From a virus, in UHGV virus genome UHGV-2101173: a stretch of DNA of 18,655 bases. One strand, 5' to 3'. The position numbers and the translations under genes were made by a program. This document shows positions 1,676 through 18,442 of the stretch, in pieces; position 1 is the stretch's first letter, and every line of letters begins with the position of its first letter. The notes beneath the pieces are model-generated. The model saw only the letters and a program-made list of their open reading frames with translations. It had not been told where the DNA came from and did not search any database.

Positions 1676-2383
1676 TCACTCTCCTTTGATGCGAATGCCA
1701 GTAGCGCGGATTGCATCGATGACTTCAGAAACTTTGTATGCCATTACCGTTTGGTAATCATCGTGAAAATCTGTTCGATGAAGCATGCTGCTACGTTCCG
1801 GGAGCGTTATTTCCCGAGCATCCAGTTCCTTAACGCGTTCCTCCAGTTCGTAGACCCTGCATTGTTCTCTATCATCAATCAGATATAACCCAAGACATTC
1901 GCTTTCTACCCAACCGCCAAAATCATGATCGTAACGCTCACATGAAAACTCACCGTCACCGTCCTTTGTTGGAATGGTGTAACTGTCTAATGGGCCACCG
2001 TACGTCGGCACATTTCCTAATGTCGGATGCTCAATCCACATAAAAAATGCACGTCCGGTTATTGGGCAAATATCTGGCCGCCATTGGTTACGAACAGCGT
2101 TGGTTTCTGATAATTCTTCAGCGTGTTGTTTTACTTCCTCAAGCTCAACACGCAGCTTCCCTACCGTTAGCGCAATATCCTCGTTCTCCTGATCGCGGCT
2201 TTTGATGTATTGCAGGTTTCTTTCCCGTTCATCCAACAATGCCAGCGCGATATCTGGCGAAAAGTGCTTCATAAAATCGTTAAGCGCATTAATTCGCTGA
2301 TCGAAAGGCATTACAGGTGCTTCACCAGCAATTTTTGTTTTTTCAGCGATTTCACGAAGCTTTTGATAATCAATCTTGCTCAC
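1676..2383 (-). CDS. Hypothetical prophage protein, possibly Ead/Ea22-like
   Basis: ORF track 1676..2404; preferred start is GTG at 2383 preceded by strong SD AAGGAGG, overlapping the upstream stop (GTGA). N-terminal half looks coiled-coil, C-terminal half globular ([35 protein letters not shown]). Family assignment from memory only. Confidence 0.5.
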
Positions 2384-2580
2384 TGGTTGCCTCCTTTGCG
2401 CCACATCGCATTCAGATATTTGTTTTGATTCACTGACGGAAAAGAATTTCTCTTAAGTAATTCCTCTCTCGATGGCATTGGCTTTACGCGTTGGCGAATA
2501 ATCATTTCTGCCGGAAGAATGCCGGGATTGCATGCAAGTCCTCTCATGGTAAATTCCTCAGTCATTACTGATAGCGCCAT
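2380..2580 (-). CDS. Small hypothetical protein (start ambiguous: ATG at 2580 or 2565)
   Basis: 3' part of track ORF 2380..2697. The long version overlaps the neighbouring ORF 2558..2851 in another frame, so an internal start ([10 protein letters not shown]... or MTEEF...) is more likely. No strong SD. Confidence 0.3.
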
Positions 2581-2851
2581 AGCGTGAGCGGTAATTACGC
2601 AGGCGCGGGTCAATTTCAGGGAAGTGGGTATATGTGGCTTTGCGGAATGGTCGGATTGATGTCTGGTAAATTCGCTCGCGTTCTTCTTTCTCTGCAAGCC
2701 ATATACAATGGCGAAATTCCTTTTCCTCTTTCGTTTCCTGCGGTAGCGACATTATCCGGTCGTAGTTTTTTCCGAATTTATCCAGCACCTCCAATACGGA
2801 ATTGCCGGAACAGCGGCGCGGGTCATCCGCACCATACAGAGGCGCTGGCAT
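2558..2851 (-). CDS. Hypothetical protein (97 aa)
   Basis: ORF track; ATG at 2851 preceded by SD AGGAG at 6 nt spacing; lies just downstream of the exonuclease stop. No family recognised. Confidence 0.45.
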
Positions 2852-2867: not shown

Positions 2868-3415
2868 TTATTTAGCTAACTTTTTCCAGATCGCTGAAAC
2901 GTATTTGGCTTGGTGAATGGCATCATCAAGCGCGTTGTGGCGAGTTCCTTTGAATGGCATATCTCGCTTAGGGTCGAATCCTATTGCCTTCCCAAGTTCG
3001 ACGATTGTTCTTACGTCGCGGTCATTCCACCACTGCCACGGAACTGGCTGCCCTGTCAGCGAATAACTGTTGCGGAGAATAACGCAGTCAAATGATGCTC
3101 CATTCCCCCAAACCTGAACGAATTTGTGGTTAGCGTTCTTTATGATGAATTCAGATAACCATGAAAGAGCCGTTGAGAGCTCTTGAGTGTTGCTGGTTAG
3201 CGATTTTCTGGCTTCTTCACTCTGTTCCATCCACCATAAAATCGTTGAAGCGTCAGGACGCGCCCGATATCGCATTGATGACTCAAGCGAGATATTTACC
3301 GAGAACTCTTCTCCTGTTTCTCCGGTATTCGGGTCAAAGAATACCGCCCAATAGAAATAACTGGCGCGTATGGCCCGTTGCCCATTGTTTCAAGGTCAAC
3401 CATCAAGTGATTCAT
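2868..3415 (-). pseudogene. DEDDh-type 3'-5' exonuclease (DnaQ-like), interrupted by a -1 frameshift near 3340..3350
   Basis: Frame A (3415..3296) encodes MNHLMVDLETMGNGPYAPVISIG then stops; this carries the Exo I motif D-x-E. Track ORF 2868..3275 in another frame carries Exo II (GNGASFDCVIL) and Exo III (HNALDDAIH). That frame stays open upstream as ...AVFFDPNTGETGEEF... with no start codon. The two frames join at attgggcggtattc, where a GGG run sits. Confidence 0.6.
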
Positions 3416-3423
3416 GTAAGTCC

Positions 3424-3939
3424 TTAAATTGCGTGAATAGCGTGACGAGGGAAGGGGAGAGTTACTGGTGCAAAGGGGATGTCGTCGTCAAAATCCATAG
3501 GTGGTTCGCTGTGATTTCCCTGCTGCTGAGGTTGCTGTCTTTGTTGCTGACCATTATTTCGCTGAGGTGAAGACTGTTCATTGCCTCCTTGCTTGCCACC
3601 AAGCATTTGCATGGTTCCACCAACGCCCACGATGACTTCGGTAGTGAACCGATCCTGTCCGCTTTGATCCTGCCATTTTCTTGTCCGCAATTTGCCTTCA
3701 AGATAAACCTCAGAGCCTTTTCGCAGATATTCGCTGGCAATTTCTGCCAGTTTCCCGCTCATTACCACGCGGTGCCACTCCGTCTGCTCCTTTTGCTCTC
3801 CAGTTTGCTTATCACGCCATTGTTCTGACGTAGCAACGGTAAGGTTTGCAAATGCCGTTCCTGATGGTGAATATCTGATTTCTGGATCATGCCCAAGGCG
3901 ACCAATAATGATCACCTTATTTACGCCTCTGCTTGCCAT
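3424..3939 (-). CDS. ssb: Single-stranded DNA-binding protein (SSB) with a C-terminal extension
   Basis: ORF track; OB-fold-like N-terminus, Gly/Gln-rich linker, conserved acidic tip MDFDDDIPF. The frame continues 15 codons past the tip ([15 protein letters not shown]). Confidence 0.85.
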
Positions 3940-4647
3940 TTATGCCGCCTGTTTTAGCTCGTTAACTCTGATGTTCATTACCTGAACGCATTTAGCCTGC
4001 GCCTCCTCGTTTCCAGCCATTAATTGCCAGTCACGCTGATAACGCTCGATGAGTTTTTTCTTGTCAGTTTCTGTTGACGCATAATCGCTGAAGTCTTTCA
4101 GGATTTGTTCGCAGTCAACCGATGGAGATTTCTGGTTGGTATTTTCTGGTGATGGTTTGTTATCTGATGCTGGGATTGCCCATCCCGGCAGTGATGGAGG
4201 GAGCCAGTAAAATCCTGTTCCATCCTTCAGTTTTGCCCTGTGCCACCCCTGCTTTTTATCGAGAGATGTTTGTGCGAAACCTTCCTCAAGGTTATACAGA
4301 TACCGACCGATTCCCCACTGAACGGCAGCGCGCTTCATTGCACCGGAACGACCACCTTTGACGGCTTCTACCTGCGTGTTTTCAGCAGCATCCCATTTGG
4401 TTACCCATTCGGAATCAATCTTTATTGATATGCCGCATTCAACGCCGCCGTTGTTGGGAATATCGCGGTATTCATTGCGCCATCCTGCTTTGCCGCAAAC
4501 ATCGTCCAGGCGTTTCATGATTGCCCGGTTCGTGACATAAGCCAGCACCATAGCCCACACTTTGCCATCGCGTGTTTTACCGCTTTGCTGTATTCGCCAT
4601 TCGATATCTTCAGGGCTGAATGGCTCATCGAATTTATTCAAATCCAT
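3940..4647 (-). CDS. Rad52/Erf-superfamily single-strand annealing protein
   Basis: ORF track; ...VEAVKGGRSGAMKRAAVQWGIGRYLYN... resembles the Rad52-type annealing core. Sits directly upstream of ssb. SD GAGGTG before the ATG. Confidence 0.7.
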   Translation of the reverse strand: MDLNKFDEPFSPEDIEWRIQQSGKTRDGKVWAMVLAYVTNRAIMKRLDDVCGKAGWRNEYRDIPNNGGVECGISIKIDSEWVTKWDAAENTQVEAVKGGRSGAMKRAAVQWGIGRYLYNLEEGFAQTSLDKKQGWHRAKLKDGTGFYWLPPSLPGWAIPASDNKPSPENTNQKSPSVDCEQILKDFSDYASTETDKKKLIERYQRDWQLMAGNEEAQAKCVQVMNIRVNELKQAA

Positions 4648-5193: not shown

Positions 5194-6162
5194 TTAGTAG
5201 GTTATTTTTGTTGCGAATACTTCGCCTTTTACGATGGCTGTTATGATATTTTTAGCAACATCTTCTGATGCGCCAACCTTGATAATGTCAGCAAGTATTT
5301 TGTTATTTACTTCTTTCCGGTGAGCTTTATCCTTTGCTCTACGCTCTTCTTCGTCCTTGATTCTTTTTTCTTCTGCTATTCTGGCTTGCTCTTTTGCTTC
5401 AGCCTCGCGCCGGATTCGTTCAGCCTCCTCCTGTGCTTTTCGGCGTTCTGCTTCAATTGCCGCCTGCTTTTCTCTTTCAGCTCGTTCTGCTGCCTCTTTT
5501 GCTTCGCGCTGTGCTCGTTGCTCGGCTTCAATGCGTTCACGCTCTGCACGTTCCGCTGCGGCCTTAGCTTCTGCTTCTCGCCTTGCTGCTGCTTCAATTT
5601 CGGCTTTTGCCTTTGCTTCGGCTTCTGCTCTGGCTTTCTCTTCAGCTTCTCTTTTTAAGCGTTCTTCATGCTCTCGCTTTTCCTGCTCCGCTTTGAGTCT
5701 TGCCTCTTCTCTTTGGCGGTCAAATTCGCGATCCATCAAAATCGCTATTTCATGGTCAGACTCAATTTGCTTTGCGAGAGCTTCAGCTGCTGCCTTAGCT
5801 TCTTCTTCGGCTTTAATCCGTGCCTGTTCCTCCTCATAATCAGTAAGAGGCTGGCGCGCCTTGGCTTTCAGTTCATCAAGGCGATCGCGCACTGTCTTGC
5901 GGTTAGCATCAATTAGCTTTGGAATTTCCTTCAGTTCAGCAACAAGGTCTTTGCCAAGACCATCGAGATATGTTTTCGTCTGCGCAACTTTATACGCCAG
6001 AGAAGCGATCTCCTTTCTGCCCTTTGCCGTTGTGATATCAGGCACAAAGGACATAACTTCACGTTCAACCTTTTGGAGAATTTCTTCAATCTGGTCGGCA
6101 GACTGAAATACAGTCATCGCATTTGCTTTTTCAATAACAACTAAATCTGTTACTTCACTCAT
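5194..6162 (-). CDS. Coiled-coil protein with a long Glu/Ala/Lys/Arg-rich helical tract (TolA domain II-like)
   Basis: ORF track 5194..6258; preferred start is ATG at 6162 preceded by SD GGAGGA. About 190 residues of EAK/ERA-type repeats flanked by short globular ends. The underlying DNA is repetitive. Confidence 0.65.
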   Translation of the reverse strand: MSEVTDLVVIEKANAMTVFQSADQIEEILQKVEREVMSFVPDITTAKGRKEIASLAYKVAQTKTYLDGLGKDLVAELKEIPKLIDANRKTVRDRLDELKAKARQPLTDYEEEQARIKAEEEAKAAAEALAKQIESDHEIAILMDREFDRQREEARLKAEQEKREHEERLKREAEEKARAEAEAKAKAEIEAAARREAEAKAAAERAERERIEAEQRAQREAKEAAERAEREKQAAIEAERRKAQEEAERIRREAEAKEQARIAEEKRIKDEEERRAKDKAHRKEVNNKILADIIKVGASEDVAKNIITAIVKGEVFATKITY

Positions 6163-6174
6163 ATATCCTCCATC

Positions 6175-6201
6175 AAAAAAAATCGCCCTCACACTGGAGG
6201 G
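6175..6201 (-). terminator. Weak intrinsic terminator-like element upstream of the coiled-coil gene
   Basis: 5-bp GC-rich stem (ccctc/gaggg, 6186..6201) followed on the minus strand by a U8 tract (plus A-run 6175..6182). Stem is short. Confidence 0.3.
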
Positions 6202-6453
6202 AAAAGAAGATTTCCAATAATCAGAACAAGTCGGCTCCTGTTTAGTTACGAGCGACATTGCTCACATAGCAGACTCGTAAATCTGCTATAGGCGCTTATT
6301 CGCATCGCATGACAACATCAAATTTTTCGAGATTACTTTGTCGCAACAATCCTTTTTCTACGCGGTCAGCTTTTCTATAATTATCAAATTAGAAATGTTT
6401 AATTACTTCTTTCGTTTCTCGCTCTATAACTTCAACAATGTATTTCTTATTCA

Positions 6454-11376: not shown

Positions 11377-11817
11377 ATGAAAAAACTAACCTTTGAAATT
11401 CGATCTCCAGCACATCAGCAAAACGCTATTCACGCGGTACAGCAAATTCTTCCAGACCCAACCAAACCAATCGTAGTAACCATTCAGGAACGCAACCGCA
11501 GCTTAGACCAAAATCGGAAGCTTTGGGCTTGCCTTGGTGACGTCTCTCGTCAGGTTGAATGGCATGGTCGCTGGCTGGATGCAGAAAGCTGGAAGTGTGT
11601 GTTTACCGCAGCATTAAAGCAGCAGGACGTTGTTCCTAACCTTGCCGGGAATGGCTTTGTGGTAATAGGCCAGTCAACCAGCAGGATGCGTGTAAGCGAA
11701 TTTGCGGAGCTATTAGAGCTTATACAGGCATTCGGTACAGAGCGTGGCGTTAAGTGGTCAGACGAAGCGCGACTGGCTCTCGAATGGAAAGCGCGATGGG
11801 GAGATCGGGCTGCATGA
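11377..11817 (+). CDS. ninB: NinB recombination protein
   Basis: ORF track 11359..11817 (TTG); preferred start ATG at 11377 after SD GAGAGGGAAG. MKKLTFEIRSPAHQQNAIHAVQQIL... matches lambda NinB as recalled. Confidence 0.85.
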   Translation: MKKLTFEIRSPAHQQNAIHAVQQILPDPTKPIVVTIQERNRSLDQNRKLWACLGDVSRQVEWHGRWLDAESWKCVFTAALKQQDVVPNLAGNGFVVIGQSTSRMRVSEFAELLELIQAFGTERGVKWSDEARLALEWKARWGDRAA

Positions 11818-12341
11818 CTATCAAATCAAATACGCCAGCACACGACAAGGACTGCTGGCAAACGCCGCTTTGGCTTTTTGATGCACTGGATATTGAGTTT
11901 GGATTCTGGCTGGATTCGGCAGCGAGCGACAAAAATGCTCTGTGTGCTCACTGGCTAACTGAGGCCGACGACGCGCTCAATTCTGAGTGGGTAAGCCACG
12001 GTGCAATCTGGAATAACCCACCGTACAGCAATATCAGGCCGTGGGTGGAAAAAGCTGCTGAGCAGTGCATACAACAGCGACAGACGGTAGTTATGCTTGT
12101 GCCAGAGGATATGTCAGTCGGATGGTTCAGCAAGGCTCTGGAGAGTGTCGACGAAGTTCGCATTATCACTGATGGACGGATTAATTTTATCGAACCATCG
12201 ACAGGGCTGGAGAAGAAGGGAAACAGCAAAGGCTCCATGCTGCTGATTTGGCGACCGTTCATCAGTCCTCGACGGATGTTTACTACCGTATCCAAAGCGG
12301 CATTGATGGCGATCGGGCAGGGTGTCAGGAGGGCGGCATGA
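11814..12341 (+). CDS. Phage DNA N6-adenine methyltransferase (Dam-type)
   Basis: 3' part of track ORF 11754..12341; ATG at 11814 overlaps the ninB stop (ATGA). Contains the NPPY catalytic motif (...[15 protein letters not shown]...). Confidence 0.8.
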
Positions 12342-15253: not shown

Positions 15254-15295
15254 CGGCATGATTGCCACGGATGGCAACATATTAACGACATGATA

Positions 15296-15324
15296 TTGAC
15301 TTTTTGAATAAAGTTGGGTAAATT
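15296..15324 (+). promoter_or_regulatory. pR' late promoter (with adjacent qut region)
   Basis: -35 TTGACT (15296..15301), 17-nt spacer, -10 TAAATT (15319..15324), followed by tgactcAACGAT as in lambda pR'/qut. Confidence 0.75.
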
Positions 15325-15359
15325 TGACTCAACGATGGATAAATGCACTCGTTAAATAA

Positions 15360-15388
15360 AGCCCTGAGTTAATAGCTCGGGGCTTTTT
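15360..15388 (+). terminator. tR'-like intrinsic terminator about 57 nt downstream of the pR' start
   Basis: 9-bp stem (one G-U) agccctgag/ctcggggct with 7-nt loop, followed by TTTTT (15384..15388). Confidence 0.7.
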
Positions 15389-16363
15389 GCGTTTGCACAA
15401 CAGGTAAGAGCATTCTCCCTTATGGGGCTTGGCTTAAATGCACCGAGTGCTCTTATCGTTGTGGCAGCACAACGATAGTTTTCGTCAGAGTTGGCGACTT
15501 TGCGGGTTTTTAGAAACTGACCACAAAGATAAATGCAAACGATGATTTGATGTTGATGGCGGCCTAAGAAACCAAAGTCACGGGGTCTTCCGATTCCCCG
15601 CTACCAAATTCGGCGCAGTGGCCCGCTGTGATTAATAATGGGCACCCAATAATGAGAGCGTTGGACAGTGGCGATGAGATTTCGCAACCCAGGAGCCAAT
15701 AGATCGGGGATAGTGCGCATAATACCGATTGAGGTGAGTGCTGGAATAAGCATCGGGAGTCATGACCCAACATGATGCGGGAAAGCCAGCCACCGAGAGA
15801 CCCGGCAGGGTAAACCGGCCTTCCGCTTGGTTATCAAGCAATAATAGCGCTCTCATTCGTGGGTAACAACGGGCATGTCGCCTTAGTAAATCCCTCAAGG
15901 GTGCGACGCATAGACCGGTACTAGCGTCGCCGTTAGCTCCACGAAACGGAGCGCACAACAGGTAAGAGTATTTGTAGAGTTCGACTCTCTACCGTGGGAT
16001 TTTTTCCGCGATGCGAGCCATAAATGCTCTTTCCGTTGTGCTGAATTAAGCGAATGCCGGAAGCAGAACCGGATCACCAAATGCGTACAGGCGTCATCGC
16101 CGCCCAGCAACAGCACAACCCAAACTTAGCCGTAGCCACTGGCTATCCTGAACTCATCAGTGATAGTTATGCTGCGGCCTTCTACGCATGACCTTCGTGA
16201 AAGCGGGTGGCAAGAGGCTGCGCTAACAACCTCCTGCCGTTTTGCCCGTGCATATCGGTCACGAACAAATCTGATTACTAAACACAGTAGCCTGGATTTG
16301 TTCTATCAGTAATCGACCTTATTCCTAATTAAATAGAGCAAATCCCCTTATTGGGGGTAAGAC

Positions 16364-17923: not shown

Positions 17924-18442
17924 ATGAATCATCAATTGGCTAATCTCGATTTCCGGGACATGGTGGTTGTTTCTGGTGATCGCGTGATCACAACCTCCCG
18001 CAAGGTAGCAGCTTACTTCGACAAGCAGCATCACCACATCATTCAGAAAATCGAAAAGCTAGACTGTTCGGATGAATTTCTAACCAGCAACTTTTCGCGG
18101 GTTACCTATGAACACAAGGGTAATCAGTATGTTGAATATGAAATTTCCAAAGACGGCGCTATGTACATCATCATGTCGTTTACCGGCAAAAAAGCTGCCG
18201 CCATCAAAGAGGCGTTTATCAAAGCATTTAATTGGATGCGTGACAGGCTGATGGAGATGGCTCACTCATACCAAAGAGAGCACAACGAGTTAATGCTGGA
18301 GTTCATGAAGGAAAAGGATGTTGCCAGTATGTCAGGACGCTTGCTGAACCGCTGGGGCAGGATCAAAAAACCGCAACTCATAGCAAGAATCAAAATGCTT
18401 GAGCAGCAGGCGCAAATATCGATCCCCGGACTGCCAAAGTGA
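17924..18442 (+). CDS. Rha-family phage regulatory protein
   Basis: 3' part of track ORF 17681..18442; ATG at 17924. ...DMVVVSGDRVITTSRKVAAYFDKQHHHIIQKIEKL...YIIMSFTGKKAAAIKEAFIKAFNWM... fits the Phage_pRha pattern as recalled. Confidence 0.7.
   Translation: MNHQLANLDFRDMVVVSGDRVITTSRKVAAYFDKQHHHIIQKIEKLDCSDEFLTSNFSRVTYEHKGNQYVEYEISKDGAMYIIMSFTGKKAAAIKEAFIKAFNWMRDRLMEMAHSYQREHNELMLEFMKEKDVASMSGRLLNRWGRIKKPQLIARIKMLEQQAQISIPGLPK

Follow-up and report, generated by a model that had tools for sequence, protein, structure and literature searches.

A probable recent frameshift pseudogene of a DEDDh exonuclease in the recombination module of a human-gut Escherichia coli prophage

The DNA analysed here (hereafter the window) is the whole 18,655-nucleotide stretch of viral genome UHGV-2101173. 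Between ssb and abc2 of its P22-type recombination module, it carries a DEDDh 3′-5′ exonuclease gene whose reading frame is divided at a run of three G residues, where intact homologues have four. It is highly probable that this is a real and recent pseudogene and that the exonuclease gene of a P22-like/lambdoid E. coli prophage has been inactivated by a 1-bp loss. The first-pass annotation, made from the letters of the window alone, had left three explanations standing: recent decay, an error in a homopolymer, and a slippery-site frameshift. Recent decay is favoured by the identity of the repaired protein to an intact E. coli protein and by the confinement of the allele to a tight clade; the other two are disfavoured.

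Reading frames and genomic setting of the split gene

The features on which the argument draws all lie on the minus strand and are listed here in the order in which the leftward operon is read, with window coordinates.

3940..4647, minus strand: recombinase of the module, a single-strand annealing protein of the Rad52/Rad22 family (Pfam PF04098, E = 5e-26)
3424..3939, minus strand: ssb, upstream neighbour in the same leftward operon (Pfam PF00436, E = 2e-38)
3296..3415, minus strand: exonuclease 5′ fragment (open reading frames and translation; Pfam PF16473 positions 1–23, E = 5e-6)
3347..3349, minus strand: lesion, a GGG run with a 1-bp deletion relative to the GGGG of intact homologues (alignment; 97 intact GGGG loci)
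3323..3346, minus strand: perfect inverted repeat with arms of 8 bp (CGGTATTC / GAATACCG) and a loop of 8 nt, abutting the G-run on its 3′ side (folding; allele table)
2868..3346, minus strand: exonuclease 3′ reading-frame part, native residues 24–182, with Exo II and Exo III (translation; Pfam PF16473 positions 47–177, E = 1e-49)
2558..2851, minus strand: abc2, P22-type anti-RecBCD protein 2, downstream neighbour (Pfam PF11043 positions 1–97 of 97, E = 7e-62)

Two minus-strand open reading frames (ORFs), one of 39 aa (3415..3296) and one of 135 aa (3275..2868), represent the two halves of a single 182-aa exonuclease of the PF16473 family (Rv2179c-like 3′-5′ exoribonuclease, DEDDh/DnaQ-like fold). 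The first starts at an ATG (3415..3413) with an AAGGA Shine–Dalgarno sequence at 3425..3421 and stops at a TAA (3298..3296); it encodes 23 native residues, MNHLMVDLETMGNGPYAPVISIG, which include Exo I (D7, E9), followed by 16 out-of-frame residues, RYSLTRIPEKQEKSSR. The split site is ATTGGGCGG, with GGG at 3349..3347 (junction string ATTGGGCGGTATTC, 3352..3339), after which the native frame picks up again at GCG 3347..3345 (Ala24). This second frame is open from 3389 to a TAA at 2870..2868; its upstream part reads ...YFYWAVFFDPNTGETGEEF... and its translation runs ...YFYWAVFFDPNTGETGEEFSVNISLESSMRYRA...GNGASFDCVIL...HNALDDAIH...KKLAK. As had been claimed, the upstream part is open but has no start codon: no ATG, GTG or TTG occurs between 3389 and the M at 3275, and ATG 3275 (Met48) is the sole usable start of the 3′ part.

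Restoring one G at the junction, the repair that the earlier reading had proposed, yields a single ORF of 549 nt and 182 aa that reads ...PVISIGAVFFDPNTGE... and matches PF16473 over its full length (positions 1–177 of 177, 247.9 bits, E = 6.6e-74), well above the gathering cutoff of 27 bits. As encoded, the 39-aa and 135-aa ORFs match consecutive parts of this one profile (168.9 bits for the latter), and the likeness of the fragments to it is thus not due to chance. All three motifs are found in the repaired translation, namely D-x-E (MVDLE; D7, E9), D (GASFD), and H-x4-D (HNALDD); in the window, they are distributed over two reading frames, with Exo I in the frame of 3415..3296 and Exo II and Exo III in that of 3275..2868. 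The ORFs, the repaired ORF and the Pfam matches agree with the first-pass annotation that a 1-bp frameshift in a G-run splits the exonuclease gene of the recombination module, and its coordinates, its assignment of motifs to frames and its junction all proved correct when the ORFs were re-read.

Genes with Rad52_Rad22, SSB and Anti-RecBCD_p2 domains flank the exonuclease gene on the same strand, as in a P22-type/lambdoid recombination module, and the position between ssb and abc2 is the order annotated also in mEp235, epsilon34 and E. coli prophages. Elsewhere, the window encodes an N-like antiterminator, cIII, Kil, a cI-type repressor, Cro and cII, as well as O-like and DnaC-like replication proteins, nin-region genes, Q, holin, endolysin, Rz and a Rha-like regulator; its best phage matches are mosaic P22-like/lambdoid coliphages, e.g., N7, IME10, mEpX2, CUS-3 and Sf6. 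A longer JGI contig of the same lineage reaches the end of the prophage, where the integrase adjoins E. coli ybhC; the host is thus E. coli, with insertion beside ybhC, in the part of the chromosome that contains the classical lambda attachment site. The word 'cryptic', used earlier of this prophage, is not supported: the integrase, repressor, replication, Q and lysis genes look intact, and the structural genes lie outside the window. The Rha-like protein (17924..18442), followed as a lead to the carrier's structural genes, pointed solely to isolate genomes that are unrelated to it and have virion modules of the P22-like type.

Some other parts of the window deserve a brief description. An ORF at 5194..6258 (minus strand; 322 aa as called in related contigs), between the N-like region and cIII/kil, has no Pfam or PADLOC match, and the PHROGs that it matches are all of unknown function (phrog_1376 and phrog_21365); its position in the PL operon is one often occupied by exclusion or defence genes. 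Between Q and the holin gene, about 1.1 kb (15254..16363) holds as its sole long ORF one of 108 aa on the opposite strand (15632..15958), and Rfam and tRNA scans of the whole window, this interval included, gave no match. The nin-region ORF at 11754..12341 (plus strand) matches PADLOC orphan methyltransferase models (E = 1.6e-19), as is typical of a phage Dam-like methylase.

Intact homologues and descent of the GGG allele

Intact versions of the gene are annotated as '3′-5′ exonuclease / exoribonuclease' in lambdoid and P22-like genomes, where they occupy the same place between ssb and abc2, downstream of the Rad52-family annealing protein; these counterparts include mEp235 gp30 (YP_007111606), mEpX2, epsilon34 gp34, and the E. 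coli proteins WP_069924752.1 and WP_001016184.1. At the DNA level, the window gene shares 98%–99% identity with the versions from E. coli and the mEp phages, and 90% with that of epsilon34. When the window is aligned to a pair of E. coli prophages, to mEp235 and to Salmonella phage epsilon34, all four have ATTGGGGC(G/A)G against its ATTGGGCGG, and the same four records annotate the gene as a single 549-nt coding sequence. The homologue alignment that the first-pass annotation had proposed for the junction thus places GGGG at exactly this position in intact relatives, and homologues encoded in two frames, which it had named as the observation that would count against its reading, were not seen: the 97 complete GGGG loci are single 182-aa in-frame ORFs. 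The remaining GGGG loci that were fetched comprise one with a nonsense mutation at codon 4, one with a stop at codon 40, and three cut by contig ends. The codon 4 lesion, found in IMGVR_UViG_3300045988_091063 (L024), is a TAG (MNH, then stop), and this copy may still be expressed via Met5 as an alternative start. The 90% protein cluster also contains members of 156 and 157 aa. Among 68 distinct intact alleles, the median pairwise dN/dS is 0.12, which indicates that the exonuclease gene is normally under purifying selection.

The GGG form is rare or absent in the collections in which the locus was counted. A 61-nt junction query matched 149 complete E. coli genomes, all at 98.4% and about one position off the window, with no exact match; among the 30 matches listed, each spans 62 bases, i.e., one base longer. 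With a 33-nt query that can seed solely on the GGG allele, the GGG junction was found in none of 5,426 complete E. coli genomes and none of 50,697 phage records, and pattern counts in IMG/VR gave 96 contigs with GGGG against one with GGG. The GGG pattern was also looked for in GTDB species-representative genomes and in metagenome contigs from JGI, without a match; these scans have no bearing on the spread of the allele. At the protein level, the exact intact protein is present on 161 contigs and the truncated product on four.

The window copy, with GGG and not GGGG and split into 39-aa and 135-aa parts, nevertheless encodes when repaired a protein identical to WP_069924752.1. Compared with the intact gene of E. 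coli 22AR0322, there are no amino-acid and three synonymous differences, and the one private substitution of the window allele is synonymous. Given this identity to the intact E. coli protein, the 1-bp deletion is the sole damaging change, and a recent one.

An exact-sequence look-up of the 135-aa product returned JGI 3300029828, ENA ERZ920321 (run ERR1190803, project PRJEB12124; a k127-named assembly), ENA ERZ1304610 (contig NODE_567_length_41688, covered about 18x) and Logan ERR1190804; all four have GGG, which places the allele in at least four separately assembled human-gut metagenome contigs. A study on the gut metagenomes of people with type 2 diabetes cites project PRJEB12124. The GGG contigs fall into three near-identical haplotypes, distinguished by single-nucleotide polymorphisms at window positions 1510 and 2531, and two prophage mosaics. 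The window corresponds to the Logan ERR1190804 contig, with an identical haplotype; over 9.3 kb, the JGI contig (IMGVR_UViG_3300029828_000288) differs from it only at 1510 and 2531, with T for the window's C at both; and both ENA contigs have T at 2531 and a wholly different left arm beyond 1670. No more than one mismatch separates the GGG carriers from one another over the 2.3-kb module, the nearest GGGG locus is at least 20 mismatches away, and an immediate GGGG ancestor haplotype was not found among the loci compared.

The mosaic junction at about 1670 is sharp and coincides with the 3′ end of an Ead/Ea22-like gene (2404..1676). The T at 2531 aside, the two ENA contigs (L007 and L008) match the window identically down to 1670 and then, at their positions beyond 7606, continue into unrelated early-left genes, and the end of the Logan contig coincides exactly with this junction.

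These data also bear on whether the true sequence is GGGG and the gene intact, with GGG arising from a sequencing or assembly error, which is unlikely. A 1-bp length change in a homopolymer is the classic type of error, and GGG is known solely from metagenome assemblies and from no isolate genome; runs of 3 or 4 bases are, however, not error-prone on short-read platforms, and GGGG is what was assembled at the locus in 149 complete genomes and 96 IMG/VR contigs. One study accounts for at least two of the carrier runs, and the four assemblies may all stem from one cohort (PRJEB12124, at least two runs) or from related samples, such that their independence is one of run, assembler and haplotype. 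Nonetheless, the same GGG emerged from four pipelines (JGI, the k127-named and NODE_-named ENA assemblies, the latter at about 18x, and Logan) and at least two runs, and it tracks a tight clade, as descent predicts and as random homopolymer error would hardly produce. Since GGG is common to several assemblies, three haplotypes and two mosaics, it is best regarded as an inherited mutation rather than a sequencing error.

Recoding and phase variation at the G-run

A ribosome that slipped by −1 at AUU GGG, before CGG, would restore the native frame, and some wild-type exonuclease could then be made from the GGG allele. Several aspects of the site are suggestive of such recoding: the shift needed is −1, and if the Gly-tRNA slipped back by one base the product would read exactly ...SIGAVFF...; the A-site codon that follows GGG is CGG, a rare codon in E. 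coli; and an 8-bp hairpin begins directly after GGG. The two-frame organisation is, however, not kept in homologues (97 of 97 complete GGGG loci are single ORFs), and because these homologues are in frame, the split does not represent a conserved programmed frameshift. Read in the zero frame, the codons are UCU AUU GGG CGG; no heptamer of the X XXY YYZ type is among them, a pattern that U AUU GGG C does not fit, and the Gly-tRNA would after slipping pair on UGG with a first-position mismatch. Frameshift stimulators normally lie 5–9 nt downstream, whereas this hairpin (arms as RNA, CGGUAUUC / GAAUACCG) has a spacer of zero and is present in the in-frame alleles too. Recoding is thus highly improbable, and at most a trace of slippage product would be expected from the GGG allele.

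The inverted repeat itself is probably incidental, being found also in intact homologues, and folding of the 103-nt region is no better than that of shuffled sequences (z = −1.13). In Salmonella-type alleles, paired synonymous changes (CGG to CAG together with CCG to CTG) preserve the pairing of the hairpin; these amount to essentially one phylogenetic event, and seven loci break the pairing.

A related possibility is that the GGG allele is leaky or attenuated, with a rare −1 slip of the Gly-tRNA, aided by CGG and the hairpin, yielding wild-type protein, or else that loss of the exonuclease has itself been selected in a gut E. coli lineage; we consider this very unlikely. Were the allele leaky, the lineage would keep a trickle of exonuclease.

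The G-run could also be imagined as a contingency locus by which the exonuclease is switched between on and off states; the sole point in favour is that the indel lies in a homopolymer. Contingency tracts typically comprise seven or more bases, whereas this tract has just four (or three); the off allele is present in only 1 of 97 IMG/VR contigs and none of the 149 complete genomes with the locus; and GGG is limited to one clade. Phase variation is accordingly extremely improbable, and recent decay of the gene remains the preferred explanation.

Consequences of the deletion and role of the intact gene

Under recent decay, one G would have been lost from the GGGG run, most simply by replication slippage. 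A quasi-palindrome-templated deletion arising from the adjacent inverted repeat was considered and rejected: the bases that flank the arms (G and G) do not template the loss of a G, and simple slippage is preferred for this reason. Ribosomes starting at the normal ATG would then make 23 native residues with Exo I, add 16 wrong residues, and stop. The remaining frame could be started solely at Met48, giving a product with Exo II and Exo III but without Exo I and residues 24–47; no polypeptide would thus possess the full DEDDh active site, and, judging from the sequence, no active enzyme is expected from the GGG allele. Translation of the 5′ fragment ends 445 nt before abc2, and any polar effect on abc2 should be small in a leftward operon under N antitermination. 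The mutation would subsequently have been passed down in a narrow human-gut lineage of E. coli prophages.

The closest solved relative of the exonuclease is T4 DexA (PDB 8KEL/8KEN), to which the protein was aligned over residues 4–145 in a phmmer comparison with 8KEL_A (E = 1.1e-13). Both share the Exo I context D-x-E-T-M-G, with D-x-E aligned to DexA D7/E9; DexA is 227 aa long, against 182 aa for the repaired window protein. DexA D90, implicated in tetramer formation, is absent from the aligned region of the window protein, as it is in the E. coli DexA homologue EcD, and falls in a gap of the pairwise alignment. This alignment ends at DexA residue 167, and the residues for 5hmC recognition (a Trp and the D169 equivalent) are not aligned. 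NCBIfam has no model for the exonuclease protein, and PADLOC gave a marginal generic DEDDh match (E = 2e-4).

Kang et al. (NAR 2025, PMC12153337) reported that EcD (the 'HREX' defence against 5hmC phage DNA) degrades T4 DNA containing 5hmC and that it protects cells. The window gene is not EcD, whose sequence in the cloning primers of that study is MIDTET...TIPETYD, against MNHLMVDLET...IWKKLAK in the window. The same study treats bacterial DexA homologues as host defence genes without mention of prophages, and the DexA-related subfamily to which the window gene belongs lies inside a prophage recombination module.

From its place between ssb and abc2, the intact gene may be an accessory to recombination; by analogy with DexA, it could alternatively serve to scavenge nucleotides or to defend against modified phages. 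That the broken allele is kept in two mosaics offers weak evidence that the prophage can do without this DexA-related exonuclease. Such dispensability is plausible, since in P22-type systems it is through Abc2 that RecBCD is recruited to process ends.

The window gene resembles other frameshift pseudogenes of prophages in its single-base indel within a short homopolymer, its otherwise pristine sequence and its restricted lineage, and it is an ordinary frameshift pseudogene of an already annotated gene family, with nothing to set it apart. In annotation, the two ORFs are best joined into a single entry, marked as a frameshifted pseudogene rather than listed as two proteins. The locus offers a clean example of the very recent inactivation, by a single base, of an accessory prophage gene in a small human-gut E. 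coli cluster, and the dispensability to which it points would be mildly relevant to the candidate roles of the subfamily in recombination, nucleotide scavenging, or defence against modified phages.
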